In this document: one piece after another, positions 1 through 27,200 of the stretch
Position numbering within the stretch: position 1 is the stretch's first letter
How the letters are laid out: every line of letters starts with the position of its first letter
Position numbers and translations under genes: made by a program
Notes under the pieces: generated by a model
Told to the model about the DNA's origin: nothing
What the model saw: only the letters and a program-made list of their open reading frames with translations
Databases searched by the model: none
Assembly: GCA_030167145.1 (NCBI GenBank)
Contig: CP126532.1
Location: 2,850,001-2,882,000, forward strand
Origin: Ktedonobacterales bacterium
Lineage (GTDB): Bacteria; Chloroflexota; Ktedonobacteria; Ktedonobacterales; JADMIN01
Reading direction: 5' to 3'
DNA: 32,000 nucleotides

Positions 1-1481
1 GCGCCCCAGAGGACGACCTGATTGGAGCCATAGTCGAAAAGCGCGAGCTGCTTGCCGGTGGGGGACCAGGAGAGCTCGATTTGGTCTGGTGATGGGGGTT
101 GCTGTGATGATAACGGGCGCTGGATGCTGAGCGTGGATAGCTCGTGGCCGGTGGTGGTATCGAAGAGGGAGATGCGTACAGTCACGGGTGTGGAAAAATC
201 AGAGCCTATGCCGTTGTCAGCGGGGAGGATGGTGGCAAGGATTTTGCCGTTGGGACGCCAGGCGACAGGGAACGGCTGAAATGCGTACTGGACAATGTGC
301 TGACCGTTGCTACTGAATACCTGAGGTGTTGCGGCGGCTTTGATGGCGGTGGCGAGTGCGGCGTCGGGATAGGGCATGATGGGGCCGGAGCAGTTGGGTT
401 GAAGCGACGAGCTACAGGAGTGTGGGCCGAGGTTTCCAACTGGGAGGCCAGGGATGGGAGCAAGGCGCGCGGCGAGATGGAGAGGCATAGCGAGATAGCG
501 CCCATCCGGCGACCAGATATACCCGGAGGAGGCGAAGACGGCACCGGCAAGTGGCAGAAGTGATGTGCTCGTGCCAGTGCTATCTACGGCCTCTATGGGC
601 ATGACTGTGCCGGGCTGCCAGATGGGGAAAGTGGGCGCGGCAGGGGCGGTGACGATGGGGCTGCCGGTGTAGCTGCCGCTGGTGGGGTGAGTGGGCGCGG
701 GCTGGGCAACGGTGATCTGGCCGCTGGCGCTCCATTGGTAGCTGAGCGCGGGCGGCAGGAGCGCGGGAAGCAGGGTGGGCACGCCGGTATGCAGATCCCA
801 GATGACCGACTGGCCGAAGGCGGTGGTGAGCGTGGAGGTGAAGAGATGTGGCTTGCCGCTGTCGAGCGGATAGATCAACAAGGCGGGGCTGGGCTGCTGG
901 GTGGTGGCGGTGTTGGAGGCGTCGAAGATGAGCGCTTTGCCGTCGGGCGACCAGACGAAATCGCCCGCCGTGCCCGGCGCGCCGAGACGCGAGAGCGTAG
1001 GCTGCGGGTCTACGGTGCGGAGGAGCGCGCCGGTGCGGGCGTCGAAGATGGCGACCATTTCGGATTGGGAGGCGCCAGGGTTGGGGCCGCAACCCTGGCG
1101 GGTGAGGGCGATGGCGACGCGTAAGCTGTCGGGGGACCAGGCGACCTGTTGCGGGCAGTAGAGGCGATTGCCGGTGAGGTCGAGGGCGAGCTGGCTGGGA
1201 ATGGGCGCGGGGGTGGCAGTGGCAGAGGCGGTAGCGGAGAGATGAGAGCCAGCACGGGTGTAGGCGAAGAGGCCAGCGGCGATGACGAGGATGGCAAGCA
1301 GCACGGCAGTGAGGGCGAGCCAGCGCGGATGTTTGCGCGTGGGCGGGCGCAGGTCGAGCGTGGGGGCGGTGGGGGCGGCGGGAGCGACTTCGGTGCTGAC
1401 GGGAGTATTCTGGCGGGCGAGCGCGCGCAGGGCATCGAGGCGGCGCTGCTGGTCATTTTTGGGTTGCTCGTGTGGCTCCAT
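1..1481 (-). CDS. Membrane-anchored WD40/TolB-like beta-propeller repeat protein; the 3' end runs off the left edge
   Basis: Absent from the ORF track because there is no stop in the window. I checked the frame by hand: no in-frame stop from 3 to 1481. ATG at 1479-1481 is preceded by AAGGAG. N-terminal TM helix LALTAVLLAILVIAAGLF. Recurrent SPDG-type blade motifs (VAWSPDSLRVA, FVWSPDGKALIF, YIWSPDGRYLA, LSWSPTGKQLA). Confidence 0.7.
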   Translation of the reverse strand, partial: MEPHEQPKNDQQRRLDALRALARQNTPVSTEVAPAAPTAPTLDLRPPTRKHPRWLALTAVLLAILVIAAGLFAYTRAGSHLSATASATATPAPIPSQLALDLTGNRLYCPQQVAWSPDSLRVAIALTRQGCGPNPGASQSEMVAIFDARTGALLRTVDPQPTLSRLGAPGTAGDFVWSPDGKALIFDASNTATTQQPSPALLIYPLDSGKPHLFTSTLTTAFGQSVIWDLHTGVPTLLPALLPPALSYQWSASGQITVAQPAPTHPTSGSYTGSPIVTAPAAPTFPIWQPGTVMPIEAVDSTGTSTSLLPLAGAVFASSGYIWSPDGRYLAMPLHLAARLAPIPGLPVGNLGPHSCSSSLQPNCSGPIMPYPDAALATAIKAAATPQVFSSNGQHIVQYAFQPFPVAWRPNGKILATILPADNGIGSDFSTPVTVRISLFDTTTGHELSTLSIQRPLSSQQPPSPDQIELSWSPTGKQLALFDYGSNQVVLWG

Positions 1482-10555: not shown

Positions 10556-10585
10556 TTGACAGATAGAACATTTGTTCAGTATACT
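10556..10585 (+). promoter_or_regulatory. Sigma70-like promoter, cassette copy A
   Basis: TTGACA (10556-10561), 18-nt spacer, TATACT (10580-10585). Confidence 0.6.
10566..10577. promoter_or_regulatory. Perfect GAAC-N4-GTTC palindrome (Cheo/LexA-box-like) inside the promoter A spacer
   Basis: GAACATTTGTTC. It is the only perfect N4-spaced GAAC/GTTC palindrome I found in the window. Confidence 0.5.
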
Positions 10586-10650
10586 CGTAGCGTCGGACGT
10601 TGAAGATGGAGTGCGAGATTCCGTAGCGCGTCTGGACAGATGTGTTTTTG

Positions 10651-10680
10651 GGCGGTGAGTCCGAGTAGGACGCCGCTCTC
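10651..10680 (+). promoter_or_regulatory. Conserved leader motif, copy A
   Basis: GGCGGTGAG-tccgagtag-GACGCCGCTCTC. Compare 21060-21089 and 27126-27154. Confidence 0.6.
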
Positions 10681-10723
10681 TCCCGTGGAAGGCCGCGGGC
10701 AGAGAGCGGCGTTTTGCTTTTTT
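10671..10723 (+). terminator. Intrinsic terminator within the leader, upstream of the protease RBS
   Basis: CGCCGCTCTCTCCCG (10671-10685) pairs with CGGG-c-AGAGAGCGGCG (10696-10711), followed by TTTTGCTTTTTT (10712-10723). Confidence 0.75.
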
Positions 10724-10759
10724 GAGGGGACTCGCAGATGCGGGAGGGAGTGAGACAAG

Positions 10760-12253
10760 ATGGCGAGGAGAAGCGCGGCAGCGGTTGCGGGGAACGTGGG
10801 AAGCGCCGAAGTGGAACTCGAAGCGCGTGTGGAGGTGGCGGCGGGGATGGCGGGTGATGGCGTGGCGCGGGTGGGCTATGCGCCCATCGTGCGGGTGGAT
10901 GCGCCGCGTCGCGAGGTGGAGTTGTGCGCGACGAGTGAGGCGGTGGATTCGTATGGGACCGTCTTTGATTACGCGGCGAGCAAAGAGGCGTTCACACGGT
11001 GGCTGGGGAATGTGCGTGAGATGCACGACCGGCGCGCGGTGGGGCGACGGGTGGCGGTGCGCTGCGACGATGAGGCGCGGCGGATCTTCGTGCGGGTGCG
11101 GATCTCGGCGGGTGCGCGCGATACGTGGGAGAAGATTGCGGATGGGACGCTGCGCGGGGCGAGCATCGGCGCGAGTGATGTGGTGTGGGAGCGGCAGACG
11201 CGGCGGATTGGCGGGCAGGAGCGCACGTTGAACGTGGCGACGCGCTATGAGTTGGTCGAGTTGAGCCTGGTGGATAACCCGAGTAATCCCGATGCGCTGG
11301 GCATTACGATTGTGCGTGCGGCGACGCCTGATCCGGCGCTGTTGGATGCGCTGGATGCGGATGGGGCGATGGCGGAAGATGCGGCTGATTATGGGTACAC
11401 GCCGTGCGCCCCTACGGTGGCCGGTGGGGAGGGCAGGGATGCTGGCGCAGTGGCAAGGGTGTCTGCCCCACCGCGCGTGGGTGATGTGGGAACGAGCGCG
11501 CAGACAGGAATGTCCGCGCTACCGCAGACAGGGATGGTTGCGCGAGCAGAGGAGGAGATGGTTGGACGGATAGAGGAGGAGCGAGCGCTGGGGCCGTTCA
11601 GCGCGAATGCGGAGGGGCAGCCGGATATGGGGGTGCCCGCGCGGGCAGAGGAGCGGCCAACGAGCGCGTTGGAGAAGGGCGCACGCCATGCGCCCCTACT
11701 GATGCCGGATGGCAATGCGCGCGAACGGTTTCATGCGGCGGCGCGGAGCATCTTGCTGGGGTGCGGGTGCCCGCTCTGCGCGGGGGCTATCGCGGCGCTG
11801 GGCGAGGACGGTGAGGATGGCGGCGAGCGGTCGCAGGAAATGCGTGACGGCGGAGCGGCGGCGGTGACGGGATTGCGCGAAGCGGCGCTGGCACGGGCGC
11901 TGGCGGCGGGGCTGGGCGCGAGTGTGGCGCAGATGGCGCAGATGGATGCGAGCGTGCGGGCGCTGGATGGCCGGGTAGCGGGGGCGCTGGATGCGCTGAC
12001 GGGGACGCTGGGCGATCTGCGGATGCGGGTCGAGCAGATCGAGGCGCAGCCGATGCCGGGGGGTCCGGTGGCGCGTCCGGTTCCGGTGGAGAAGGTTGCG
12101 GCGCTGTCGGCGGGGTATGCGGCGGCGGGTGGTGAGGTGAGCGCAGCGGAGCAGTTTCGCGCGCTGGAGTCGCTGGCGGGGCGGCTGAGTGACCCGCAGG
12201 CGCAGATTGCGGTGGCGGCGGAGTTGATCCGGCTGCGGCAGGCGGGGCGGTAG
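10760..12253 (+). CDS. HK97-family prohead protease (S78/U35-like) fused to a long C-terminal scaffold-like region
   Basis: The N-terminal ~200 aa fit the prohead protease pattern: VELCATSEAVDSYGTVFDYAA..., MHD, GASIGAS and ELSLVDNPSNPDA. The C-terminal ~300 aa are Ala/Glu/Arg-rich and helical in character. GGGAGGGAG RBS 9 nt upstream. Confidence 0.85.
   Translation: MARRSAAAVAGNVGSAEVELEARVEVAAGMAGDGVARVGYAPIVRVDAPRREVELCATSEAVDSYGTVFDYAASKEAFTRWLGNVREMHDRRAVGRRVAVRCDDEARRIFVRVRISAGARDTWEKIADGTLRGASIGASDVVWERQTRRIGGQERTLNVATRYELVELSLVDNPSNPDALGITIVRAATPDPALLDALDADGAMAEDAADYGYTPCAPTVAGGEGRDAGAVARVSAPPRVGDVGTSAQTGMSALPQTGMVARAEEEMVGRIEEERALGPFSANAEGQPDMGVPARAEERPTSALEKGARHAPLLMPDGNARERFHAAARSILLGCGCPLCAGAIAALGEDGEDGGERSQEMRDGGAAAVTGLREAALARALAAGLGASVAQMAQMDASVRALDGRVAGALDALTGTLGDLRMRVEQIEAQPMPGGPVARPVPVEKVAALSAGYAAAGGEVSAAEQFRALESLAGRLSDPQAQIAVAAELIRLRQAGR
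11671..11699. repeat. REP-like hairpin element lying in-frame inside the protease-scaffold CDS
   Basis: GGAGAAGGGCGCACGCCATGCGCCCCTAC with hairpin GGGCGCA/TGCGCCC. It is translated as EKGARHAPL. A near-identical copy (2 mismatches in 23 nt) is intergenic at 12335-12357. Confidence 0.6.
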
Positions 12254-12257
12254 GGGA

Positions 12258-12401
12258 ACCTCTCCCCCGGCCCCTCTCCTACAAGGCGAGGGGAGAAGAA
12301 CGGACGCCCCTACGAGCGCCACATGGTCGCTAGAGGGCGCACGCCATGCACACCTACGAACGCTGCGCGCTGCTCCGACGAGGAGAGGGGAGAGCAGAGG
12401 G
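12258..12401. repeat. Cluster of REP-like GC-rich elements between the protease and capsid genes
   Basis: Contains ACCTCTCCCCCGGCCCCTCTCCTACAAGGCGAGGGGAGAAGAA, GGACGCCCCTACGAG, GGGCGCACGCCATGCACACCTAC and CGACGAGGAGAGGGGAGAGCAGAGG. Confidence 0.7.
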
Positions 12402-12655
12402 TCGCGACGCGCGCGAGGGGCGCCATGTTCGGCGGATGGGCGATTCAGGCATCACCCCTACAGATGGGTTCGACGACGTTTTCAGGCATTGCCACGGCAG
12501 ATTGTTTTCGCGATGTTTCGGCAAGTTGGCAAGCGAAAGGAGCGTGCGAAGGGATATACGGCACGAGCGAGCGATTTCACGCGATGGACGCAGGTGTGGC
12601 TGACAAGCAGCTACGCATCATGCACGAGTGTGTGTTGGAAGGAAGAGCAGAGGTT

Positions 12656-14176
12656 ATGGGAACGAGTCTGTACACGCCGGGGCCAGTTGGCCCGACGATT
12701 TCGGATGAGACGGTGGCGCTGGTGCGCCAGGCGATTGCGGAGACGACACGGGCAATCACGACGACGAGCGGACTGCTCGGCTATGAATTGGAGACGCCGG
12801 CGAAGGTGATCGTGCCGGTGATCACGCCGCTGGTGAATATGCTGCCCCGGCGCAAGGGACGTGGCGTGGACGTGGTGCATTGGAAGGCGATCACGTCGTT
12901 CGATACGGCGCGGAACTGGGGCACGCTGGCCGATGGCGGCACGCCGCAGAGTGTGACGTATGCGGTGGCGCAGTTGCAGAACACGCTGCAAACCATCTCG
13001 CTGATGAACTCGGTGAGCTTTCAGGCGCAGTGGCGTGGGCGTTCGCTGGAGGCGGATGTGCGAGCGCGGCGCGTGGCGGAGTTGCTCTATCAGCTCAAGA
13101 TGACGGAGGAACGCTGGATTCTGGGGGCGAGCGCGTATCTGATGACGCCGCCCGCGCCGGTGCTGGCGACGGCGACGACCGGCGGCACGGTGGCGGCGGG
13201 GACGTACTGGGTGGCGGTGACGGCGAAGAACGCGCAGGGCGAGACGCTCGGCTCGACCTTTGCGAAGATCGTGACGACGGGCAGCACCAGCACGGTGACG
13301 ATCACGATTTTCACTGTGCCGAACGCGACGCAGTACAACGTGTACATCGGCAGCGGTGGGAGCCAGCCCGCGGCGAGCGCGATGTGGCTGCAAGCGGGCA
13401 TTTCGGGGGCGAACGCGGCGCAGCCGAACGTGGGCGCGAGTGTGACGCTGGCGGATGGCGCGACGGTGATGCCGTCGGGCGAGGTGAACCCGGCGTATCT
13501 GACGGTGACGCTGAGCGCGCCACCGGCGACGAGTGGCACGGCGCTCTCGACAGTAGCGGCGAACACGGCCAAGACATTCGTGGACGGCTCGAACAATGTG
13601 CTGATGTGGGACGGGCTGATCGCGCAGGCGCTGAACAACGCGACGACGGCGAATGGCGCGACGCTGGGGGCGCAGGTGACGCAGCCAGCAGACCCAACTG
13701 GCAAACTGGCGCTGTCGGATATTGATAATCTGCTGGCGGGCATGTATTTGCAGGCGGCAGGCGACCCGGACTACATTGTGATGAATCCGCTAGACAACGT
13801 GCGGCTGACGAATCTGGTGGTGGGCGCGGGGCAACTGCGCTATGTGGTGCAGGCGGGGGATAGCGCGGACCAGGGGCAGCTCACGGCGCAGTACCGGGTG
13901 ACGCGGTATCTGAACAAGAGCACGGGCAAAGAGATGCCGATCATCCTGGATCGCTATTGCCCTCAGGGGTGCATCGTGTTCTTGCCGGTCTCGATTCCGT
14001 TCCCGGTGCCGGAGATCAGCACGGCGGTGGAGCTGGAGACGAACCAGGAATACTGGGGCGTGGACTTCGCGATCACCGACAGCAACTTCAAGTTCGCGGA
14101 CTTCGTGGAAGAGACGCTGAAGGTGTATTTCCTGGGTGGATTGGGGGTGATTCGCGGGATCTATCCGAGCTTCTAA
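12656..14176 (+). CDS. Phage major capsid protein (probably HK97 fold) with a large internal insertion domain
   Basis: Sits directly after the prohead protease. The N-terminal pattern GYELETPAKVIVPVITPLVNMLPRRKG...VHWKAIT and EERWILGAS is capsid-like. GGAAGGAAG..AGAGG RBS before the ATG at 12656. Confidence 0.75.
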   Translation: MGTSLYTPGPVGPTISDETVALVRQAIAETTRAITTTSGLLGYELETPAKVIVPVITPLVNMLPRRKGRGVDVVHWKAITSFDTARNWGTLADGGTPQSVTYAVAQLQNTLQTISLMNSVSFQAQWRGRSLEADVRARRVAELLYQLKMTEERWILGASAYLMTPPAPVLATATTGGTVAAGTYWVAVTAKNAQGETLGSTFAKIVTTGSTSTVTITIFTVPNATQYNVYIGSGGSQPAASAMWLQAGISGANAAQPNVGASVTLADGATVMPSGEVNPAYLTVTLSAPPATSGTALSTVAANTAKTFVDGSNNVLMWDGLIAQALNNATTANGATLGAQVTQPADPTGKLALSDIDNLLAGMYLQAAGDPDYIVMNPLDNVRLTNLVVGAGQLRYVVQAGDSADQGQLTAQYRVTRYLNKSTGKEMPIILDRYCPQGCIVFLPVSIPFPVPEISTAVELETNQEYWGVDFAITDSNFKFADFVEETLKVYFLGGLGVIRGIYPSF

Positions 14177-14372: not shown

Positions 14373-15530
14373 CTAGTTATCGGGAACGGTGATGCGGACG
14401 ATTTGGCCGGAGCCAGGGGGGAAGCCGAAGCCAAAGGTCGAGACGTAGAGCTTGCCGTCGGGGCCGAAGGCCATCGCGGTGGGGAAGGTGAGACCTGAGG
14501 CAATCGTTTCGACCGCGCCTGAGCGGCTGACGCGCACGACCGCGCCGGTGCCTGGCGTGGGGCCGGGGCCGCTGACGGTGGTGGTTTCGAGTACGTACAT
14601 ATTGTTGTCTTCGTCGAAGGCGAGACCGAGCACGGTGGTGAGGCCAGGGATGAAGACCTTGATGTTCCCGCTCGGCGTGATCTTGAAGATGTTGGAGGAA
14701 CCGGCGACGACCGGGAAGGTGTCCAGGTTGCCGACGAAGAAGTTGCCATGGTAAGCCAGGGCGGTGGGCACGATGTGTCCCTGGCTGGCGGAGATGTCAA
14801 TCACGCGGCTGATGTCGCCGTCTGGGGTGATCTTATCCAGTTCGCCGTGGTTCGGCTCGACGGCGTAGAGATTGCCGCGAACGACGATCAAACTCCACCA
14901 CGTGCCGTCCGGCTCGAAGTCGTCGGGTTCGGGGTTTTTGACGGGGTGGCTCTGCTGGAACGCACTGAGGTTGGCGATCAGCTTCCAGGAGCCGTCGCGA
15001 TTCACCCGAATGATGCCGTTGGGGATGTTGGCGACACCATGTGAGCAGCCCGCGCCAGCCAGAAGGGCGTAGAGCCTGCCGTTGAGGAATGCGATGGCCG
15101 CCACTCCGCTCACCAGGCTGCCAAGCGCCGGACTGGTTTGACTGGAGGGGAGATTGTCGGCAACGGTGGTGCGGACGCCATTCTGGTTGAAGCGGGAGAT
15201 GCGGGCGGTCATGCCGCTGGTGTAGGGGCCGACCGGGGGAATGACCTGGGTACACTGGCCGACGGTGGAAGTGGATCCGCCGGTGCCGCCTTCGGCGACG
15301 TAGAGGTTGCCATCGGGGCCGAAGGTGAGGCCACGAGGGTTGTTCAGGCCGGTGGCGAAGACGGTGATGCGGGCGGTGTGGGCGCTGGTGGCGTGGGCCT
15401 GCTGTGGCGCGATGACGGAGGCGAGGGTGGTGACGAGGAGTAGCGCGCCCGCTATCCCCAGAAATATCCGCGAGCGTTGAGCAGGCGGAGAGAGTCGAAG
15501 GCGCTGATGGAAGATGGTAGCAACGGACAT
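14373..15530 (-). CDS. Secreted NHL/ScyD-ScyE-like beta-propeller protein
   Basis: N-terminal signal/TM segment. Motifs GLNNPRGLTFGPDGNLYVAEGGTGG, LAFDEDNNMYV and MAFGPDGKLYV are typical of NHL-type propellers. Confidence 0.7.
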   Translation of the reverse strand: MSVATIFHQRLRLSPPAQRSRIFLGIAGALLLVTTLASVIAPQQAHATSAHTARITVFATGLNNPRGLTFGPDGNLYVAEGGTGGSTSTVGQCTQVIPPVGPYTSGMTARISRFNQNGVRTTVADNLPSSQTSPALGSLVSGVAAIAFLNGRLYALLAGAGCSHGVANIPNGIIRVNRDGSWKLIANLSAFQQSHPVKNPEPDDFEPDGTWWSLIVVRGNLYAVEPNHGELDKITPDGDISRVIDISASQGHIVPTALAYHGNFFVGNLDTFPVVAGSSNIFKITPSGNIKVFIPGLTTVLGLAFDEDNNMYVLETTTVSGPGPTPGTGAVVRVSRSGAVETIASGLTFPTAMAFGPDGKLYVSTFGFGFPPGSGQIVRITVPDN

Positions 15531-15933
15531 GGTTCATGCTCCTTCGCATGTGGTGATGACGTGTGGAATCAGACGCGCTGGGCGTCCATGACGTGGGTGA
15601 GGGGGTGCGCCATCGCACAGGTGACGCGCTAAACAGCCATTCGCAGTACACACATCCGCACTACTCGCATATTTCAGCAGAGGTTACTGGTCGCTCTCTA
15701 CCACCCCCTTCATTCATCAGCAGATGCCAGTAGATCTCGTGGCGGCTTCGCGCCGCATCGAGTATGTATTGTTCAGCTTGCTCGGCTTTTTCGGAGCGCT
15801 TACTGCAATTCTTATGCCAGCAATGCTCATATCATGATAGAGTAAGACAGGCGGGCGCATAGAAAAGAGCGCCCTGGGGAACCGCATATGAGACGGTTGC
15901 CAGGGCGCTGGGTAGATGCGAGATGGGGCGAAA

Positions 15934-16602
15934 CTAGGGTGCGGGTGGTTGGGGTTGGGCGCCCATGGGTGGCATCGTCATGGGTTTGTATTGGTCCACG
16001 ATGGGGAGTTCGTAGGCCTCGCGGACCGGCGGGGCGACGGCGAACGGGACGACTTTGGTCAGGTTGCGCGCAAGGTTGCCGCTGGCCTCGCTTGCCGTCA
16101 GAGCGGCCATGGTTTCCCACAGGCTAATCCCGATGCCCTTGCCGCTGGCGCGATCAACAAGGAGCAGCGCGCCGGTGAAGCCCTTCTGTTGCCGGACATC
16201 AGGAAAGATGGAATCGCGAACGGTACGGATGGCTTCGTCTATCTTGTTCAACTGATACTGGCCGGTGAGCAGGCGAGCGATGGGCGCAGCGCCGCTCTTT
16301 GGCATCAGCGGCTCGTACACAGCGACCTCGCAGGTTTCGCGCACGGGTGGGGCCGCGAGCAATGGGGTGATCTTGGCGACTTGCTGCTGGTAATAGCCGG
16401 TGGTCTCACTGGCGCGCAGGTCGGCTTCGGTCTCCCAGAGGGAGATGGCAATGCCTTTGCCGCTGGCGCGGTCAATCAAGCCGAAGAGATGGGTACAGCC
16501 TTGTTGTTGGCGGGCCGCTGGCGAGATGCTATCGCGGATGACGCGGACGCCGTCGTCAATCTTGCCGGGCTGATACTGGACGGTGGTCAGTCGTGCGTGC
16601 AT
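15934..16602 (-). CDS. Tandem ABM/Dabb-like (ferredoxin-fold) domain protein
   Basis: Two internally repeated ~100-aa halves (IDRASGKGIAISLWETEADL and VDRASGKGIGISLWETMAAL). GAGGAG RBS before the ATG at 16602. The upstream part of ORF 15934..17088 looks non-coding. Confidence 0.6.
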   Translation of the reverse strand: MHARLTTVQYQPGKIDDGVRVIRDSISPAARQQQGCTHLFGLIDRASGKGIAISLWETEADLRASETTGYYQQQVAKITPLLAAPPVRETCEVAVYEPLMPKSGAAPIARLLTGQYQLNKIDEAIRTVRDSIFPDVRQQKGFTGALLLVDRASGKGIGISLWETMAALTASEASGNLARNLTKVVPFAVAPPVREAYELPIVDQYKPMTMPPMGAQPQPPAP

Positions 16603-17014
16603 GGTGGTCTCCTCGTTGGGTAGTTCTTGTTGGTTGGTACTGTGCAGGGCCGACGCGCGCCCTGGACGCTTCGTTTGCGTTCCATGCGCGGGGACGTGCG
16701 TGGGGAGGCCGCACGACTCATGCCACCATGCTTTTATGTCATGGGGTGATGTATGGATATGTCGCGATGCCCAGGTGCGTGTTGGGACGCCGATGAGATT
16801 ATTCGTAGTCCTCGCAGCGTGAATGCTGCGGGTAATCCCGTTTTCGGGGTGGATGATGGCTACGCCAACGACGCAACAGAGGGTGGTACGACTACTTTGA
16901 AGGTAGCTGCCAATATCATTGAACTGGTGTGGCTGTTGTTGTGAATTGCTATGGCTAGCGTATAGAGTATTGGGGAAGAATAGTGTGTCTCGGTGGACCA
17001 TATGAGGCGGGAGT

Positions 17015-17485
17015 ATGGGCGCAGATATCAATGGGTGGGTTGAAATCAGGGAAGAACATGCGGATGCGTGGCGCGGAGTCATCCGCATAGACGACCTCGT
17101 GCATCGGTCTTATGGCATGTTTTGTAGTCTTTTTGGTTTCCGTAATTGGCCGCACAGATTCAGACCGGTTGCGCCGGAACGTGGTGCGCCGCCAGGAGCA
17201 TCAGCGGAGTATGAGGACGAGCGCGATGGTTATGGCGGGCCGGTCGGTGAGACGTGGATATTATGGAGCGAGTTTGCGGATATCAATTGGAATGAGGAGG
17301 GCAGACAATATATTGATGAGGAAACGGACTACGTTGAATCGTTGCCAGGACTACGACGCCACCGCGAGCGCAGAGGAGACTATCTTGTTGATGGATGGGT
17401 CACACTATTTGAGAAAATGGCAGCGCTGGCAGAGGAGTTCGGTGCTGAGAACGTTCGGTTGTCGGTTTGGTTCGATATGCGATAA
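17015..17485 (+). CDS. Hypothetical acidic protein
   Basis: 156-aa ORF, AT-richer than its surroundings. Its stop is 9 nt before the Rieske gene, whose AAGGAG RBS overlaps the 3' end (operon-like). No family recognised. Confidence 0.5.
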   Translation: MGADINGWVEIREEHADAWRGVIRIDDLVHRSYGMFCSLFGFRNWPHRFRPVAPERGAPPGASAEYEDERDGYGGPVGETWILWSEFADINWNEEGRQYIDEETDYVESLPGLRRHRERRGDYLVDGWVTLFEKMAALAEEFGAENVRLSVWFDMR

Positions 17486-17494
17486 GGAGTTCTC

Positions 17495-18511
17495 ATGTCA
17501 GCGCAAACGGGATTGCCGCCATATCCCAATGGGTGGTTCGTGATTGGCTTCTCGGATGAGGTGCGGCCAGGGAGGCTGCTGGCGCGGCAGTTCATGGGGC
17601 AGGAGGTGGTGGTGTTTCGCACGCGGTCGGGCAAGGTGTGTGCGGCGGACGCCTATTGCCCGCATCTGGGCGCGCATTTCGGCTATGGGGGCCGCGTGGA
17701 GGGGGAGTGGTTGCGCTGTCCGTTTCACGGCTTTTGCTTCGATACGCAGGGAAGTTGTGTGAAGACGGGGTATGGCACGAAGCCGCCGCCGACGGCGCGG
17801 CTGAAGCTCTGGCCGCTGCGCGAGCAGAACGGGCTGCTGCTGGTCTATCACGATGGCGAGGGCGCGCAACCGACGTGGGAGGTGGCGGCGCTGGAGACGG
17901 AGGGGTGGACGCGCCCGATTTGTCGCGCGTTCACGCTGCGCGATCATCCGCAGGAGACGACGGAGAACAGCGTGGACATCGGGCATTTCGCTTTCGTTCA
18001 CAAGTATCGAGATGTGCGGGAACTATGCGAGATACAGACGGATGGGCCGTATCTGAGCACGGCCTACGCGGTGCGGCGGGCGGCGCCGCTGGTGGGGCGG
18101 GTGTGGCGCGGGCTGAGTTTTGCGTTCGAGTTCGAGACGCAGATTTATGGGCTGGGGTACTCGCTGGTGCGGCTGTCTGTGCCCGCGCTGCGGCTGCGGG
18201 CGCGGCTGTGGGTGCTGCCGACGCCGCGCGACGAGGAGCGGCTGACGCTGTGGCTGGCGATGAGCGCGCGGATTCCGTGGACGGGGCACGCAGGCAATCC
18301 GCTGGCGCGGCTGCCGGGGAAGGCGCTGGCATGGCTGCTCGCGCGGTTGGTGTTGATGGGGCTGGCGCATGACGCGCAGCAGGATTTTCCAATTTGGGAG
18401 CATAAGCGGTATGTGCAGCCGCCCGCGCTGGCGAAAGGGGATGGCCCCATCGGCAGGTATCGCGCGTGGGCGCGGCAGTTCTATCGCCAGGAGGGACAGC
18501 AGGAGACGTAG
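17495..18511 (+). CDS. Rieske [2Fe-2S] non-heme iron oxygenase alpha-subunit-like protein
   Basis: CPHLGAHF...CPFHGFCF is the Rieske motif. The catalytic-domain pattern NSVDIGHFAFVH is present. Confidence 0.85.
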   Translation: MSAQTGLPPYPNGWFVIGFSDEVRPGRLLARQFMGQEVVVFRTRSGKVCAADAYCPHLGAHFGYGGRVEGEWLRCPFHGFCFDTQGSCVKTGYGTKPPPTARLKLWPLREQNGLLLVYHDGEGAQPTWEVAALETEGWTRPICRAFTLRDHPQETTENSVDIGHFAFVHKYRDVRELCEIQTDGPYLSTAYAVRRAAPLVGRVWRGLSFAFEFETQIYGLGYSLVRLSVPALRLRARLWVLPTPRDEERLTLWLAMSARIPWTGHAGNPLARLPGKALAWLLARLVLMGLAHDAQQDFPIWEHKRYVQPPALAKGDGPIGRYRAWARQFYRQEGQQET

Positions 18512-18514
18512 TGG

Positions 18515-19600
18515 TTAGGGCAGGGTGAAGCGCTGGAAGAAGGCCCAGATGGCGGTGGTCGCGTCGAGGTTGCGGCTGGTCTTGCCGATGACGGCGGCGG
18601 GCAGATATTGGAGTCCGCCGGGCCAGGCGTGGCCGCCGCCGAGGATGTCGTCGAAGATGACGGCGCTGCCGCCCGCGCAGCCGGAGTAGGTTTGCTGCCG
18701 TACCTGGGTGCCGTCGTTGACGAGTTGAGGCAGCGTGGTGATGGTGGGCGTGGGGGCGCAGGCGTCGAGCGTGGCCCACTGCTGAACCGTGGCGATGTCG
18801 GAGAGCACGCCGCCGCCGGGGCCGACGCGCACCGCGCCTCCGGCGGCGGGAATGATTGGGTCGTCGCTGCCGTGGATCATCAGCAAGGGCATGGGGTGCG
18901 CCGGGTGGCAGGTTGGGGCGTCGTTGGTGGCGAGCATCGCGGCGACCGGCGCGATGGCGGCGAGGCGGCTGGCGAGCTGGCATCCGAGCCAGAAGCTGAA
19001 GATGCCGCCATTGGAGATGCCCGTCGCGTAGACGCGATGGGTGTCAATGCGGTACTGCTGTTCGAGCGTATCGAGCAGGGCGGTGATGAAGGCTACGTCG
19101 TCCACGCCTGCTTTTTCGGGGGGTGTGGTACCGCGCCCATCGGCCCAATGGTGTTCGTAGCCGTCGGGAGCGACGACAATGAAACCCTGCTGGTCGGCAA
19201 GTTCGTTGAAATGGGTCAGCCCTTCCATGCCGCTGCCCGTGCCGCCGCCACCGTGAAAAGCGAAGATGAGCGGCAGCGCGCGGCTGCTGGATGCGGCGGA
19301 CGGCAGATGGACGTGATAGGTGCGCGTGAAGCCACCGGAGACGAGCGAACCGTCTACATCGCGAGTGCCGGTGGTTGCGCCAGGGGCGCTGACGCTGGTG
19401 GTGATGCGGCGCTGGCATGCGGTGGCGCTGAGCGCGAGCGTGAGCAGACCAATGAGACATGCGAGCGTGAAGGTGAGACGGCGCGCAGTCCACGATGAAG
19501 CGGTGTGCGCATGCGAGGCGGTCGCGGTCGCGGGTGGTGTATCAGATAGCAAACCCAGCCCCCTCCATCCACTCATGCGCGGGTATTCAGGAGCCAACAC
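18515..19600 (-). CDS. PHB-depolymerase-family (LpqC-like) secreted esterase
   Basis: Has LPLIFAFHGGGGTG and GISNGG (GxSxG), plus an N-terminal hydrophobic signal. The start is uncertain: GTG at 19600 or ATG at 19576. Confidence 0.75.
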   Translation of the reverse strand: MLAPEYPRMSGWRGLGLLSDTPPATATASHAHTASSWTARRLTFTLACLIGLLTLALSATACQRRITTSVSAPGATTGTRDVDGSLVSGGFTRTYHVHLPSAASSSRALPLIFAFHGGGGTGSGMEGLTHFNELADQQGFIVVAPDGYEHHWADGRGTTPPEKAGVDDVAFITALLDTLEQQYRIDTHRVYATGISNGGIFSFWLGCQLASRLAAIAPVAAMLATNDAPTCHPAHPMPLLMIHGSDDPIIPAAGGAVRVGPGGGVLSDIATVQQWATLDACAPTPTITTLPQLVNDGTQVRQQTYSGCAGGSAVIFDDILGGGHAWPGGLQYLPAAVIGKTSRNLDATTAIWAFFQRFTLP

Positions 19601-19999
19601 CTATCCGTCACGCTTGGCCAGCCAGTAGAGCGCGGTATCGGTGAGCGCTGCGCTGAACGCGAGCGCGCCGAGGCCGATGAAGCGCGGATGGCGGTGGCCC
19701 TGGCTGATGGCGAGGCCTACGGATAGCACGTCGCCGCCGTCGGTGAGGGCGCGGGCGAGCAGCCACGGCGCGTAGTTGCCGCCATGCGTGGCGGCGGACC
19801 ACATGCCGATGCCCATTACTACATCGCGCACGCCGAGCGAGCGCATCATGGAGGCGGCCTGGGCATCAGGAGCGCGGAAGCCAAAGAGGCGGGCGAATGA
19901 GCGTGGGGCGAGCGTAGGCAGCGCGCCAAAGGCGAGCATGGCCAGTCCAAGTCCCGAAGTGAGGCGGCGTGTTTGGGGGGCGTCGGGCAGTTGTCGCAT
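19601..19999 (-). CDS. Small membrane protein (DUF4267-like)
   Basis: Four hydrophobic segments. GGAGGA RBS 8 nt upstream of the ATG at 19999. The family assignment is from memory only. Confidence 0.5.
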   Translation of the reverse strand: MRQLPDAPQTRRLTSGLGLAMLAFGALPTLAPRSFARLFGFRAPDAQAASMMRSLGVRDVVMGIGMWSAATHGGNYAPWLLARALTDGGDVLSVGLAISQGHRHPRFIGLGALAFSAALTDTALYWLAKRDG

Positions 20000-20327
20000 G
20001 GGTGTATTCCTCCGCCGCGACACAGTGAGTGCGCGGATGAGCAGAGAGCGGCGCGAAGCGGCTGTGCGCGGAAGCGTGGCCTACCGCACGGCGGGTGGGA
20101 CGCTTCCTCATCGAATCATAACGCATGGCGCTCAGGCGCTGGCACGCAAGTTGCCTGAGAATCTGCTGATAGGCTTTTCGGCGTGCATAGCGCGATGTAC
20201 CGTGCCATGCCATGTTTCCACTGGAGGCCCAGGACATGCGGCGAGGAGCATATGGGCATGGCAGACACGCGCCTGACCGTATGAACCCCAGCAATCCGGG
20301 AGATGACCGGGCTGGAGGAGGATTCCG

Positions 20328-20909
20328 ATGAACCCCAATGAGCCGATGCCACCATTGCCGGAGGAGCAGCCGCCCTATTCGCAGGGGCAGCCCTACGATG
20401 TGACACAGAGTTATCAGGAGACACAACAGCGCTACGGGCAACAGCCACCACAGCCGTATGGACAACCGCCGCAGTACGGGCAGCCACCACAGCCGTATGG
20501 ACAACCGCCGCCACAACCGCAGCCGTATCAATCGGTGGACTATACGCGGTCGGTGCAGTCCACGCGGACGTATCAGCCGGGAGTTGTGCCACGACATTCG
20601 CAGGTCTATTTTCGCGTGCGGCAGATCGTCTATTTCATCCTGGGCATTCTCGAAGTCTTGCTGCTGATCCGGTTGCTGCTGAAGTTGCTGGGAGCCAACC
20701 CGGACGCGGGATTCACCGCTTTCATCTATGGTCTGACCGCGCCGTTCGTGTATCCCTTCCAGGGGGTGTTTCCCAGCCCTAGCAGCCAGGGCAGCGTGCT
20801 AGAGCTTTCGACGATCCTGGCGATGATCGTTTATGCGCTGCTGGCGTGGGTCGTGGTGAAAACGGTGGACATTATCAGCCGCCCGAAAGCGCCCGCGGAG
20901 ACAGCATAA
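20328..20909 (+). CDS. YggT family membrane protein with an N-terminal Pro/Gln/Tyr-rich repeat region
   Basis: C-terminal FILGILEVLLLIRLLLKLLGANP...LTAPFVYPFQGVFP. N-terminal QPPQPYGQPPQYGQPPQPYG is encoded by a near-tandem DNA repeat (20440-20510). GGAGGAGG RBS. Confidence 0.8.
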   Translation: MNPNEPMPPLPEEQPPYSQGQPYDVTQSYQETQQRYGQQPPQPYGQPPQYGQPPQPYGQPPPQPQPYQSVDYTRSVQSTRTYQPGVVPRHSQVYFRVRQIVYFILGILEVLLLIRLLLKLLGANPDAGFTAFIYGLTAPFVYPFQGVFPSPSSQGSVLELSTILAMIVYALLAWVVVKTVDIISRPKAPAETA

Positions 20910-20989: not shown

Positions 20990-21019
20990 TTGCGAAAAGT
21001 AGAAACTATGTTCTATAGT
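20990..21019 (+). promoter_or_regulatory. Sigma70-like promoter, cassette copy B
   Basis: TTGCGA (20990-20995), 18-nt spacer, TATAGT (21014-21019). Confidence 0.5.
21002..21013. promoter_or_regulatory. GAAC-N4-GTTC-like box (one mismatch) in the promoter B spacer
   Basis: GAAACTATGTTC abuts the -10 element. A second inverted repeat, CAGAAC-N8-GTTCTG, lies at 21020-21039. Confidence 0.4.
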
Positions 21020-21059: not shown

Positions 21060-21089
21060 GGCGGTGAGCCTGAGCAGGGCGCCGCTCTC
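21060..21089 (+). promoter_or_regulatory. Conserved leader motif, copy B
   Basis: GGCGGTGAG-cctgagcag-GGCGCCGCTCTC. Confidence 0.6.
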
Positions 21090-21145
21090 GATGTTCCGTC
21101 GCTGGGAGTAGACGGGGTGTCGGGGGTGGCGTCCTGTTTTTTGTT
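21076..21145 (+). terminator. Leader hairpin plus T-tract (intrinsic terminator-like), copy B
   Basis: AGGGCGCCGCTCTC (21076-21089) can pair with GGGGGTGGCGTCCT (21122-21135) as 14 bp including 4 G-U pairs, followed by GTTTTTTGTT. Confidence 0.55.
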
Positions 21146-21186: not shown

Positions 21187-22113
21187 ATGACGGCGGCGAT
21201 TGGGGTGAGCGCGTATGTGGATGTGCCCGCGTTTCTGCGGGCGGCGGTGAATCTGGAGACGGCGTCACTGCTGGGGTTGAATACGACGGTGGGGGTGGGC
21301 GGTGTGGCGGCGGGTGCGACGAGCCTGCCGGTGGTGGCGTCCACAGGATGGGCAGTGGGTCCGCTGTGGTTGCTGGATGGACCGTATGCGGAGATGGCGC
21401 AGGTGACGGGTTCGGTGGATGGGACGCATCTGACGCTGGCCGCGCCGGGGACACAATTCGCGCATGGGGCGGGGGTCTCGGCGAGCCAGGCGGGGACGGG
21501 CGGCGCGCTGGCGGAGGTGCTGCTGCGGGCGAGCGCGTGGATCGAGAATTATTGCCAGCAGGGAACGTCGGCTATAGATCGGTCGCTGTATGCGGTGAGC
21601 CGGAGCGAACGCTGGGGTATGCCGGACATGCGCGCGAACCTGGATCGCGATGGCGTGCTGGTGGTGCGCCCCGGTCATTTTCCGGTGCAGTCGGTGACGG
21701 CGCTGGCGATTGACCTGGGGCAGGGGCAGACGCTCAGCTTCGATGCGACACAGGTGCAGCTTGCCTCAAATGGGCGGGTGATCGAGCTGCCGTACCTGCT
21801 CTCCACCGCGCCGAATCCGGGGCAAGTGCTGGGGTGTCCGGGGGTGGGCCTGTCGCGCGTGCGTCGGCAATGGGTGACGCTGACGTATACCGGCGGGCTG
21901 ACACCAGGGGCGCTACCGTATGACGTGCGGCAGGCGTGCATTTGGGTGGCGAGCGAGCTATTGGCCGAGCGGCGCAACCCGACGGGCGCGGCGGCGGTGC
22001 GCCAGGGGAAGTTCGAGCTGCAAGCGCGGCTGCGCGGCGACGCCTCGCCGGACTCGCTGCTGCTGGCGCAGGCGAAGGCGGCGCTGGAGCCGTATCGTGT
22101 GGGGCAGATGTGA
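21187..22113 (+). CDS. Phage gp6-like head-tail connector (adaptor) domain protein with an N-terminal extension
   Basis: The central pattern LLRASAWIENYCQQG...RSL...VVRPGHFPVQSVTALAIDLGQGQTLSFDATQVQL..GRVIEL matches the gp6-like connector consensus (A..IE.Y..r.l...L...PV.SV..v..d). GAGGAGG RBS before the ATG at 21187. Confidence 0.6.
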   Translation: MTAAIGVSAYVDVPAFLRAAVNLETASLLGLNTTVGVGGVAAGATSLPVVASTGWAVGPLWLLDGPYAEMAQVTGSVDGTHLTLAAPGTQFAHGAGVSASQAGTGGALAEVLLRASAWIENYCQQGTSAIDRSLYAVSRSERWGMPDMRANLDRDGVLVVRPGHFPVQSVTALAIDLGQGQTLSFDATQVQLASNGRVIELPYLLSTAPNPGQVLGCPGVGLSRVRRQWVTLTYTGGLTPGALPYDVRQACIWVASELLAERRNPTGAAAVRQGKFELQARLRGDASPDSLLLAQAKAALEPYRVGQM

Positions 22114-22130: not shown

Positions 22131-23162
22131 TCAGGATGCGCGCTGGCGCCGACTGCGTACAACGCCTGTCGCCAGTTTGACGATGAACATGATAGTACCA
22201 AGGCAACTCAGTGCTGCTCCTGCTAGGCCGATCACGACAAGAGCAATAACGAAGGGACTGCTTTTGGAGGCCAGCCCTAGCTCCGAGATGATGACGAGGC
22301 CAAAGACAGGCAGACTTGCTATGCCATCGAACAGTATGATACGGATACCCCAGGACGGTCGGACCAGCTTGCTCTTGCGAACGGTTATCACGATCAATGA
22401 AATACCACAGGAAAGCAACACGACACCCACTGCCTCAGCAGCGTAGAAAAGCAAGCTCTGGATGCTATCACTTGGGCTGAAGAAGGTATGAAGGGAAATG
22501 ATGACAAGGAGCATGAGCGCACAGCCATGAAAAACACGTTCAAGTCTGCGTTCCCAGTTTGGCTGCGCGGTGGGTGGTGGGTTATTGCGCGGTTCCGGTT
22601 CCATACTTCGCTCCCTTGCAAAGGCGGATGCTATGCCGGTGAGCGCTGCTGCTGCCGTCGGGCAATGATGCGCTGGCCCGGTGGAGATGCGCTGGCCCGG
22701 TGGAGATGCGATGAACGCAAACGCAAGGCTCCCACAGCCGATGGCGAGAACAAGATAGGGTTCGACTGCACGCTGTAGCGCCAAAAGGCCAGGTGCAAGC
22801 TCATAGAGCGTTGGGAGTGTGCCATTGGGCAAGAGGCGTGCCAGTGAATCGTAAGCCCACGGTGGAAGAAGAAGGAATGCGACTATGAGACTCAATGGGA
22901 TGCGCCAAGAGCGCAATGTCCATGGACGCCGAATAGCGTTCCCTGCCAGTAGCAGCATATTGGCGCAGCACCATATCAGGGCGTTGAGGCTGAGCGCAAA
23001 GCCCAGGCCGGTGTGCTTCGAATCGAAAGACACAATCCAGGCAAGGGGCAGGAAGAGTACAAAGCAGCCGACCCATGCGACTAGCAAGATACGTTCCCAC
23101 CATGCGAGCGGGACAACTGGATGCTGCGCTATTTCGGTGGGCGGCTGCTCATTCGATTCCAT
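22131..23162 (-). CDS. Multi-pass integral membrane protein of unknown family
   Basis: About 8 hydrophobic helices. GAGGAG RBS before the ATG at 23162 (MESNEQPP...). AT-richer than its flanks. Opposite strand to the flanking phage-like genes. Confidence 0.6.
   Translation of the reverse strand: MESNEQPPTEIAQHPVVPLAWWERILLVAWVGCFVLFLPLAWIVSFDSKHTGLGFALSLNALIWCCANMLLLAGNAIRRPWTLRSWRIPLSLIVAFLLLPPWAYDSLARLLPNGTLPTLYELAPGLLALQRAVEPYLVLAIGCGSLAFAFIASPPGQRISTGPAHHCPTAAAALTGIASAFARERSMEPEPRNNPPPTAQPNWERRLERVFHGCALMLLVIISLHTFFSPSDSIQSLLFYAAEAVGVVLLSCGISLIVITVRKSKLVRPSWGIRIILFDGIASLPVFGLVIISELGLASKSSPFVIALVVIGLAGAALSCLGTIMFIVKLATGVVRSRRQRAS
22667..22710. repeat. Perfect 19-bp tandem duplication inside the membrane-protein CDS
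   Basis: GATGCGCTGGCCCGGTGGA occurs twice (22667-22685 and 22686-22704), followed by a partial GATGCG. Confidence 0.9.
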
Positions 23163-23246: not shown

Positions 23247-23564
23247 ATGATTTTCACGACGGTTCGGTTGGAGCGGCCAGAGGGGACGGCGCTGTTGCAT
23301 GGCATCGGCGCGCAGATCGAGCAGGCCGCGGCGGATGACCTGGCGCGCGCTGAGTTGGAAGGTGCGCGTCCGTATGATGTGTTCTGGCTCTACACAACGC
23401 AGGGTGTGCCAGCGGTTCCGCTCCAGCGGCGCGATGTGCTCTTCGACGAGCAGAACAACGACCTCGAAACTGGCCAGCCCGCCAAATATCGTGTCGCGGG
23501 GCTGGTCGAGACTTTCGATAACGATCATCAAGAGGCGCTCTGCGAGCGTGTCGTGGGAGGATAG
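23247..23564 (+). CDS. Phage head-closure / head-tail joining-like protein
   Basis: 105 aa. The size, its position after the connector, and the C-terminal pattern DVLFDE....YRVAGLVETFDNDHQEALCERV resemble gp7/SPP1 gp16-type proteins. This is pattern memory only. Confidence 0.45.
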   Translation: MIFTTVRLERPEGTALLHGIGAQIEQAAADDLARAELEGARPYDVFWLYTTQGVPAVPLQRRDVLFDEQNNDLETGQPAKYRVAGLVETFDNDHQEALCERVVGG

Positions 23565-23572
23565 GGAACATC

Positions 23573-24115
23573 ATGCCAGGCCCGGTTACGCTGCCCGGAC
23601 AGCCAGCGACCTTCGCCGCGCTCCAGGCGATGCAGTCCGTGATTCTGAGTGAATGCCTCGTCGGTGGAGTGTCGCCGTTCGCCGCGCTCTCGTCCGCCGA
23701 TATCGCGCGCTTCGGCGTCGCCAATGCGGTGTTCATCGGCCAGCCGAAAGATTTTAAGGATGCCTATCTGCCGCAGTGCAGCCTGTGGATTCCGCCGGAG
23801 AGCGAGAGCGCCGCGCTGCTGGGCTTCGCGGGGCGCGCCGTGGCGGAGTTCGAGGCGCGGGTGCGTGTCATGGTGGATCTGCGCGCGGACTGGTACGCCG
23901 CCGAGCAGCAGATACTGGCGATTCGCGATGCGCTCTGGCCGGTGCTGCTGCGGCACGAACGCCTGGGCGGGACGGTGACGAGTGTCGTCGCGGGCGAGGC
24001 GCGAGCCGGGCGTGGCCTCTGCTATGAGACGGTGGCGGGCGCGCAGTATCGCTGCTTCGAGGCGCTGTGGTGGGTGCGCCAGCAGTGGAACATCACCGGT
24101 GGGCACGTCGCCTGA
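23573..24115 (+). CDS. Phage neck / tail-terminator-like protein (DUF3168-like?)
   Basis: 180 aa, translationally coupled to the previous gene (its GGGAGGA RBS overlaps that gene's stop). The positional argument is stronger than the sequence argument. Confidence 0.35.
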   Translation: MPGPVTLPGQPATFAALQAMQSVILSECLVGGVSPFAALSSADIARFGVANAVFIGQPKDFKDAYLPQCSLWIPPESESAALLGFAGRAVAEFEARVRVMVDLRADWYAAEQQILAIRDALWPVLLRHERLGGTVTSVVAGEARAGRGLCYETVAGAQYRCFEALWWVRQQWNITGGHVA

Positions 24116-27081: not shown

Positions 27082-27110
27082 TTGCGGGAATGGAACATCT
27101 GTTTTAGGCT
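27082..27110 (+). promoter_or_regulatory. Sigma70-like promoter, cassette copy C
   Basis: TTGCGG (27082-27087), 17-nt spacer, TAGGCT (27105-27110). The -10 is weaker. An alternative -35, TTGACG, lies at 27115-27120. Confidence 0.4.
27093..27104. promoter_or_regulatory. GAAC-N4-GTTC-like box (one mismatch) in the promoter C spacer
   Basis: GAACATCTGTTT abuts the -10 element, the same placement as in copies A and B. Confidence 0.4.
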
Positions 27111-27125
27111 TGTGTTGACGAAATC

Positions 27126-27154
27126 GCGGTGAGCCGGAATATGGCGCCGCTCTC
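27126..27154 (+). promoter_or_regulatory. Conserved leader motif, copy C
   Basis: GCGGTGAG-ccggaatat-GGCGCCGCTCTC. Confidence 0.6.
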
Positions 27155-27200
27155 TCCCAGGGCTATGCCGTGGGCGGAGGGCGGCGCTATTCGCATTTCG
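27144..27200 (+). promoter_or_regulatory. Leader hairpin, copy C, with a weak U-tract
   Basis: GCGCCGCTCTCTCCC (27144-27158) pairs with GGGCGGAGGGCGGCGC (27172-27187) over about 15 bp with 2 G-U pairs and 1 mismatch, followed by TATTCGCATTTCGG. Confidence 0.5.

Follow-up and report, generated by a model that had tools for sequence, protein, structure and literature searches.

A conserved promoter-leader cassette of a phage-derived gene module in Ktedonobacterales with a putative antiterminator/terminator switch

The antiterminator hairpins bound by LicT and SacY share part of their sequence with a terminator (PMC5393181, PMC3575810). For AlpA, the AlpA binding element (ABE) is located in the DNA at -25 to -14, and the terminators start 26-54 nucleotides (nt) past the transcription start site (PMC7969949). 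The palindrome GAAC-N4-GTTC is the LexA (Cheo) SOS box of Gram-positive bacteria (PMC3323433, PMC4234289). Here, we analyzed a stretch of 32,000 nt, referred to as the window, from a metagenome-assembled genome of Ktedonobacterales (Chloroflexota), in which a sigma70-like promoter containing such a palindrome is followed by a leader with a short conserved motif and a GC-rich hairpin. An earlier note on this DNA claimed that this composite element, the cassette, recurs three times, each time 5' of a phage-derived gene, and indeed promoter, box, motif and stem were all found at the three copies, denoted as A, B and C. Beyond that note, the invariant GCGGTGAG...CGCCGC folds into a hairpin of its own, in competition with the terminator. 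The leader is real, lineage-specific and undescribed, and its sequence predicts an antiterminator/terminator switch, the alternative structures being visible in the alignment and the regulatory function being deduced from them. The features of the three copies are as follows.

10556-10561, plus strand: -35 hexamer TTGACA of copy A (promoter scan).
10565-10578, plus strand: operator AGAACATTTGTTCA of copy A with the core GAAC-N4-GTTC, a LexA/Cheo-type box within the spacer.
10580-10585, plus strand: -10 hexamer TATACT of copy A (promoter scan).
10608-10630, plus strand: extra blocks of the protease-type leader, GGAGTGCG (10608-10615) and GTAGCGCG (10623-10630), from the alignment of seven leaders.
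10652-10676, plus strand: putative antiterminator hairpin of copy A, GCGGU / GA bulge / GUCC-GAGUA-GGAC / GCCGC.
10666-10711, plus strand: terminator stem-loop of copy A, with the invariant GACGCCGCTCTC in the left arm and AGAGAGCGGCG as the right arm.
10712-10723, plus strand: T-tract TTTTGCTTTTTT of copy A.
10760-14176, plus strand: predicted target genes of copy A, prohead protease (10760-12253) and capsid-like protein (12323-14176).
20990-21019, plus strand: promoter of copy B, with TTGCGA, box AGAAACTATGTTCT and -10 TATAGT.
21061-21085, plus strand: putative antiterminator hairpin of copy B, loop GAGCA.
21073-21142, plus strand: terminator stem-loop of copy B, right arm GGGGGTGGCGTCCTG with G-U pairs, and TTTTTT.
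21187-22113, plus strand: predicted target gene of copy B, head-tail adaptor-like protein of 308 amino acids (aa).
27082-27110, plus strand: promoter of copy C, with TTGCGG, box GGAACATCTGTTT and a weak -10 TAGGCT.
27126-27150, plus strand: putative antiterminator hairpin of copy C, loop GAAUA.
27140-27199, plus strand: terminator-like stem-loop of copy C with the interrupted U-tract TATTCGCATTTC.
27235-30723, plus strand: predicted target gene of copy C, 1162-aa fibre-like protein with a Laminin_G_3 domain.

The window holds exactly three copies of the leader motif, GCGGTGAG-N9-GRCGCCGCTCTC (10652, 21061 and 27126), each on the plus strand. Dinucleotide shuffles gave an expectation of 0.01, and none of 100 shuffles reached three copies. 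The claim that the motif is found nowhere else in the window stood up to a covariance-model search, in which a fourth copy was not found and the next best match scored 13.7 bits with E=1.6. Rfam 15, searched at the gathering thresholds of its families, likewise gave no match in the whole window, in agreement with the earlier view that no described motif corresponds to this element, and when leaders A and B were searched against Rfam by E-value, only generic long-hairpin (microRNA-precursor) matches far below threshold appeared. Cassettes in relatives were collected by pattern scans, protein-guided look-ups and the covariance model, and 15 distinct cassettes were obtained, every one in Ktedonobacterales DNA. 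When a 20-base pattern was run against the contigs of a genome collection, three of the 119 matches listed were true, the others being chance matches within open reading frames (ORFs) of high-GC genomes. L-numbers (L015, L164, L171, L176 etc.) are the labels of the loci examined, where L177 is the same as L176 and L159 the same as L156.

To describe the pairing, the motif was numbered as G1 C2 G3 G4 U5 G6 A7 G8 Y9 C10 ... G18 R19 C20 G21 C22 C23 G24 C25 U C U C. The motif forms a bulged hairpin of 25 nt, in which positions 1-5 pair with 21-25, G6 and A7 are bulged, and 8-10(11) pair with (17)18-20 around a loop of 5-8 nt. Across the 15 sequences 95.6% of the cells are paired, and sliding the 3' partner lowers this to 33-66%. 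Pair 9-19 is C-G in nine copies, U-A in four and U-G in two and is never broken, and pair 10-18 is C-G in 14 copies and U-A in one, a single CG-to-UA change. For 12 of 14 copies, the minimum free energy (MFE) fold of the transcript truncated before the right arm of the terminator was this small hairpin (-8 to -14 kcal/mol). The loop is a G-N-R-N-A pentaloop in 10 of the 15 copies (GAGUA, GAAUA, GAGCA, GAACA, GGACA and, in L176, GAAAA); the other five are 6-8 nt long or otherwise off this pattern. A 5' hairpin predicted from MFE folding, GGGC-GGUGA-GYCC, was dropped in favor of the 25-nt bulged hairpin, since only 2-3 base pairs (bp) of it are conserved across copies. Kink-turn, CsrA (GGA), TRAP, PyrR and T-box-like readings of the hairpin were also rejected, as their defining features are absent or not conserved.

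The whole leaders of A, B and C fold at -67.1, -67.2 and -49.6 kcal/mol (z = -6.0, -5.1 and -4.9, respectively), and the z-scores of the terminator range from -4.9 to -7.3 across copies. The terminator reaches about -49 kcal/mol, compared with about -12 kcal/mol for the small hairpin. Its 5' arm starts at about position 15-18 of the motif and includes the invariant GRCGCCGCUCUC; the CGCUCU stretch reads CGCUUCCU in L165 and CGCUACCU in L099b, where the right arm compensates. The 3' arms are variable (GAGAGCGGCG, GGGGGUGGCG, GAGGGCGGCG and others), and those of the three window copies are as the earlier note had written them. Its proposal that the differing right arms preserve pairing held up in the alignment of 13 copies, in which the terminator arms are 95.4% paired, four pairs are changed on both sides and none of 500 shuffles reached the observed covariation. 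The stem is followed by a T-tract in A (TTTTGCTTTTTT) and in B (TTTTTT), and in copy C only by the interrupted TATTCGCATTTC. Of all the copies, about half carry a clear U-tract. With a GC-rich stem-loop and a U-tract downstream of a same-strand promoter, the GC hairpin is an intrinsic (Rho-independent) terminator in A and B.

The small hairpin and the terminator use the same strand. The 3' half of the motif had been proposed as the left arm of the GC-rich hairpin, and this is so in 15 of 15 copies, in which GRCGCCGC serves both as the 3' strand of the small hairpin and in the 5' arm of the terminator. Position 19 covaries with two alternative partners: R19 pairs with Y9 in the small hairpin as described above and with the right arm in the terminator (G-C in eight, A-U in four and G-U in one of 13 copies). 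A19 accompanies U9 together with a U in the right arm, G19 accompanies C or U, and R19 fits both partners in every copy, which is the signature of two mutually exclusive helices with a common strand. As such, the leader has what characterizes an alternative-structure attenuator, namely two exclusive helices on one strand with comparative support for both. The right arm drifts via G-U pairs, but neither the left arm nor the 5' strand does, which indicates that the left arm is constrained by more than terminator pairing, for example by sequence-specific recognition of the small hairpin.

The earlier note would have been refuted by a generic dispersed repeat next to many unrelated genes in either orientation, or by a lack of conservation or covariation in related genomes. 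Such a repeat was ruled out, and the cassette is conserved in related genomes. Of the 15 cassettes, 13 are upstream of, and on the same strand as, genes of one phage-derived module: protease and major capsid protein (MCP) seven times, adaptor four times, and p105-p180 and fibre once each. Three of the adaptor-type cassettes are directly 5' of the adaptor gene, and the fourth, L176, is 2 kb away across two antisense genes. The p105-p180-type cassette is L099c, whose p105 is 73% identical to the p105 of the window. Two cassettes have no identifiable downstream gene, one being at a contig end and one without a recognisable ORF. The motif is unchanged between genomes whose proteases are only 48-60% identical, whereas the surrounding leaders share about 51% identity. 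Between promoter and motif lie 10 to 130 nt, and cassettes within one genome are clear duplicates. Only one Ktedonobacterales sub-lineage has the element; in other lineages a box-promoter is retained before the protease (L164, L170) or the adaptor (L179, L180) without motif and terminator, and the L171 lineage has neither box-promoter nor leader motif.

Two of the cassettes in relatives have particular features. The divergent cassette of L176 (7812-7935) reads GUGGUGAG, with the loop GAAAA and a U-A pair at 10-18; the two antisense genes in its 2-kb gap to the adaptor encode secreted proteins, and an Arg/Lys-rich ORF of 96 aa ends inside the -35 of the cassette. The L156 cassette (681-900, minus strand) is an orphan on a short contig with no recognisable ORF downstream, and carries a 74-nt insert inside the terminator stem.

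In the promoter, a palindrome next to the -10 element had been noted earlier, and this was confirmed in A-C, with the same layout in all 15 cassettes. Promoter A is TTGACA-18-TATACT with 11 of 12 consensus matches in the promoter scan, promoter B is TTGCGA-18-TATAGT with 9 of 12, and promoter C combines TTGCGG with a weak -10, TAGGCT. In all three, the last 12 bases of the spacer form a GAAC-N4-GTT(C/T) palindrome adjoining the -10. The palindrome of copy A (AGAACATTTGTTCA) lies 2 bases 5' of the TATACT hexamer, and in copy B (AGAAACTATGTTCT) and copy C (GGAACATCTGTTTT, the box also given as GGAACATCTGTTT) the final T overlaps the -10. Compared with the LexA box GAAC-N4-GTTC, A matches perfectly, and B and C have one half-site mismatch each. 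Over the 15 cassettes, the promoter is TTGNNN, about 5 nt, GAA(C/A)-N4-(G/A)(T/A)(T/C)C and then TAnnnT, where the half-sites are conserved, the centre varies and the spacing to the -10 is fixed; the -35 is TTGNNN in 14 of them and TTCACG in L176.

Besides the cassettes, five box-promoters without a terminator were found, namely those of L164, L170, L179 and L180 and that of a DUF5658 gene, and the box position of about -24 to -13 is common to all 20. Since the box is present on five terminator-less promoters, its action does not depend on the terminator, as expected of a repressor operator. The DUF5658 gene is the only box target seen outside the module in about 350 kb of Ktedonobacterales DNA, and its box-promoter indicates that the box regulator also targets genes outside the phage module. 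This gene encodes 124 aa and lies about 2 kb past the right end of the window in the same genome; upstream of it (L168, 16783-16812, minus strand) the promoter reads TTGCAC-5-GAACAAACATTC-TATACT, followed by a plain leader of 70 nt with no terminator. Dehalococcoides, which also belongs to Chloroflexi, uses the same LexA box. From the sequence, we infer that the promoter palindrome is a LexA-type (Cheo) SOS box.

Based on these structures, the reading that we prefer, and on which we are evenly balanced, is that of a two-layer switch, with which the cassette would control the structural genes of a phage-derived head/fibre module in the chromosome. In the first layer, the promoter would stay closed under a repressor, most likely LexA, and open upon DNA damage. 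In the second layer, the nascent transcript would make the conserved 25-nt hairpin first. By default, the more stable terminator would win and transcription would stop 45-90 nt before the start codon. If a factor, most likely an RNA-binding protein made during induction, held the small hairpin, the terminator would be incomplete beside the U-tract and RNA polymerase would read into the genes. The cassette would most likely act as an AND gate of SOS derepression and antitermination, where both termination and read-through are predicted events. It may have been copied as inserted host genes broke up an ancestral operon.

Several points weigh against the two-layer switch. Copy C and several relatives are without a good U-tract. 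The covariation of the small hairpin is only in moderate excess, its score being reached by 11 of 500 shuffles, and comes from two or three pairs only; the lower 5-bp stem is almost invariant and thus silent on pairing either way, and L099b has a U1-C25 mismatch. The gap with antisense genes at L176 suits a processive mechanism better. Among the window proteins that were scanned against Pfam and PHROGs, there was no match to a known antiterminator or NusG-like family. LexA binding is a prediction, and the SOS genes lexA, recA and uvr were not found in the Ktedonobacterales DNA examined (about 350 kb). Finally, the source genome may hold more of the cassette regulon than the stretches examined.

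In phage lambda, the boxB loop is of the G-N-R-N-A type and that of nutR is GAAAA. This raises a nut-like (or put-like) processive antitermination, which we consider unlikely, in which the hairpin would be boxB-like, the following CGCUCU boxA-like, and an N-like protein with Nus factors, or the RNA alone, would modify the polymerase so that adjacent and later terminators are ignored. The pentaloop on a GC stem in 10 of 15 copies, the nutR loop in L176, the CGCUCU 3' of the hairpin in most copies and a layout that mirrors lambda pL-nutL-tL1 all agree with this, and long-range read-through would explain the L176 gap as well as the promoterless p105-p180 genes behind a convergent ORF. However, a processive system does not need the overlap of hairpin and terminator that is seen in 15 of 15 copies and is absent from lambda nut sites, and five of the 15 loops are not G-N-R-N-A. 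A nut site has boxA (CGCUCUUA) 5' of a boxB hairpin with a 5-bp stem and a GNRA-like pentaloop and goes with an N protein that carries an Arg-rich motif, whereas CGCUCU here is 3' of the hairpin, within the terminator stem, and is altered with compensation in L165 (CGCUUCCU) and L099b (CGCUACCU). Furthermore, no N-like protein was found, and homologues of the Arg-rich 96-aa ORF beside the L176 cassette are absent from all other loci examined.

It is quite improbable that the leader is an unregulated attenuator or insulator that damps potentially harmful particle genes and prevents read-through, with a motif kept by recent ancestry, or that the short terminated leader is a trans-acting small RNA. 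Such a reading would be in line with the lack of an effector among the window proteins scanned, with the far stabler terminator (about -49 versus about -12 kcal/mol) and with the evident duplication of cassettes within a genome. However, recent ancestry does not account for a motif that is invariant across proteases of 48-60% identity in leaders of about 51% identity, for a right arm that drifts when the left arm and the 5' strand do not, or for pairs 9-19 and 10-18, which change in a compensatory way; in addition, no other promoter is visible, so a pure stop signal would silence the genes. A Q/AlpA-type mechanism, in which the palindrome would be the DNA loading site of an antiterminator riding the polymerase and the RNA motif only the foot of the terminator, is very improbable. 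In its favor, the box at about -24 to -13 is placed as the AlpA element is in a DNA-damage pathway (-25 to -14, with terminators from 26-54 nt past the transcription start site; PMC7969949), and the regulated genes are phage-derived. Against it, five box-promoters have no downstream terminator, the box is a symmetric palindrome that equals the LexA consensus whereas the ABE (PMC7969949) and the Q binding element are asymmetric, and the spacing of promoter and motif differs between copies (10 to 130 nt). In addition, the invariance of GCGGTGAG on the 5' side of the terminator and the 9-19 covariation are left unexplained, and no Q or AlpA family match was obtained among the window proteins scanned.

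Extending the two-layer switch, a wider scenario seems possible, although we regard it as doubtful. A vertically inherited particle module, possibly gene transfer agent (GTA)-like or domesticated, would have its scattered operons under an SOS-box promoter and a new class of RNA antiterminator, with a lineage-specific RNA-binding or N-like reader, so that particle production in Chloroflexota would require DNA damage together with a second signal, as in an AND gate.

The genes behind the three cassettes belong to this module. Copy A is followed by a prohead protease (phrog_9427, E=2e-29; Peptidase_S78 borderline) and then by a phrog_13692 protein, which is taken as capsid-like because its orthologues carry faint or weak SU10_MCP matches; a PDB sequence search with the capsid-like protein as query gave no significant match. 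Downstream of B is the head-tail adaptor-like protein (phrog_442, E=7e-11), and downstream of C the 1162-aa Laminin_G_3 fibre-like protein, which has PHROG virion-structural matches. Single-protein scans of viral contigs gave one true phage relative of the adaptor (L161), where the cassette is absent. In L171 (10001-20379), the same genes form a compact row of protease, MCP, adaptor, p105, p180 and fibre, and the window therefore contains a fragmented version of one phage-derived module. Metabolic genes, including those for a Rieske oxygenase, an esterase, an SGL/NHL protein and YggT, lie between the module genes. The module is split by a metabolic-gene block (14373-20023) and by a convergent ORF of 343 aa between adaptor and p105 (22131-23162), which has low G+C at third codon positions and no family match. 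No separate promoter could be recognised for the p105-p180 genes (23247-24115). A fuller head cluster, L174, is located 0.5 Mb from the window in the same genome (record 3,369,007-3,389,933) and holds a 797-aa protease-like protein, MCP, adaptor, p105, portal, and small and large terminase; its MCP and adaptor are 88% and 63% identical to those of the window, respectively, and neither cassette nor box-promoter was found in this cluster.

Other observations concern the surroundings of the module. A gene for a YggT-family membrane protein, sometimes duplicated, is found upstream of the adaptor in many genomes (window 20328-20909; L164 13328-13798; L170 13419-14519; L099 2317-2805; L179 8596-9657; L180 5010-6178). 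It is the immediate neighbour of the adaptor in most of them, with other genes between in L180, and its recurrence indicates that a host-type gene travels with the phage-derived module. Between MCP and yggT, L170 (12995-13330) and L164 (12990-13230) contain GC-rich repeated palindromes, e.g. ccctcgcctccgcagaggagagggggccagggggtgaggc in three copies, which look like repetitive extragenic palindromic (REP) or miniature inverted-repeat transposable element (MITE)-type elements. In L171 (9290-9360), tandem gataggcgggcggttaaa repeats lie by a Y1_Tnp (IS200/IS605-type) transposase gene upstream of the protease. The window also encodes a 289-aa protein (24451-25320) with a signal-peptide-like N-terminus and no Pfam or PHROG match. 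Its GILQIKY stretch recalls lytic transglycosylases, and the module may use this protein for lysis or as a cell-wall enzyme. The G+C content of the window is 59-70%, and its GC skew is steadily positive, being above zero in every 1-kb segment of 1-32000 even with genes on both strands, which looks like replication-strand asymmetry and not a coding-strand effect.

The long protease-type leaders, to which copy A belongs, were aligned for seven loci (window, L015, L157, L143, L169, L082 and L165). Two extra blocks, G(G/T)AGTG(C/T)G and GTAG(C/T)G(C/T)G, are present in these leaders only, about 20-45 nt past the -10. The upstream part of these leaders showed no conserved structure (-0.7 kcal/mol). 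A leader peptide was rejected, since the frames and stops of the short ORFs are not conserved, and the leaders of C and L099c are too short. The block GTAGCGTG of L157 equals the 3' two-thirds of the RfaH ops element. An ops/RfaH-like reading of the GGCGGTGAG and GTAGCGTG blocks is a resemblance only; conservation does not extend to the first G, and NusG paralogues were not found.

A duplicated promoter-operator-leader cassette would explain how a fragmented, chromosomally fixed head/fibre module stays co-regulated, and it provides a cis-regulatory RNA and a regulon that can be tested in Ktedonobacteria, a phylum-level group for which experimental data on gene regulation are almost absent. The effector, if found, would be a new antiterminator family or N/nut-like logic outside proteobacterial phages, and would help to tell whether GTA-like or other phage-derived particles are produced after DNA damage.

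Among the known systems compared, the ANTAR target consists of two tandem hairpins with hexaloops (A1, G4), the second of which overlaps the terminator (PMC3369936), and it was rejected because the leader has one hairpin only, with a loop of 5-8 nt off this pattern. LexA-repressed Cheo-box promoters (PMC3323433, PMC4234289) have the identical palindrome overlapping the core promoter; in contrast, the cassette adds a leader terminator switch and drives phage-derived structural genes, not repair genes. Lambda Q at PR'-tR' and AlpA at alpB of Pseudomonas aeruginosa (PMC7969949), which regulate phage late genes and cell-lysis genes switched on by DNA damage, respectively, also have a DNA element between -35 and -10 and a leader terminator just past the transcription start site, whereas the element of the cassette is a symmetric LexA-type palindrome that is also on terminator-less promoters, and the conserved RNA hairpin is extra. 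With lambda N/nut, the cassette shares an operator-controlled promoter, a small GC hairpin with a G-N-R-N-A pentaloop, CGCUCU, a terminator and phage genes, but here the hairpin precedes the boxA-like stretch and overlaps the terminator, and five of 15 loops deviate. The hairpin sequence, its combination with an SOS box and its use as a duplicated module before the separate pieces of a chromosomal phage-derived head/fibre cluster in Chloroflexota match neither an Rfam family nor one of the systems compared. The closest working analogy would be the ribonucleic antiterminator (RAT) hairpin held by LicT or SacY. Membership in this class was rejected, as the sequence is unrelated to the RAT consensus and no CAT_RBD or PRD match was obtained among the window proteins scanned. 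RAT hairpins of the BglG/SacY/LicT systems (B. subtilis licS and sacB; PMC5393181, PMC3575810) are likewise short, imperfect leader hairpins of about 25-29 nt, whose 3' strand overlaps the 5' arm of a stabler terminator and for which a factor is needed to hold the weaker hairpin, whereas the cassette drives phage structural genes, not sugar operons, and its promoter adds an SOS-type operator. Taken together, the cassette is built from parts of known kinds, namely a LexA-type operator and an intrinsic terminator that is overlapped by an antiterminator hairpin.

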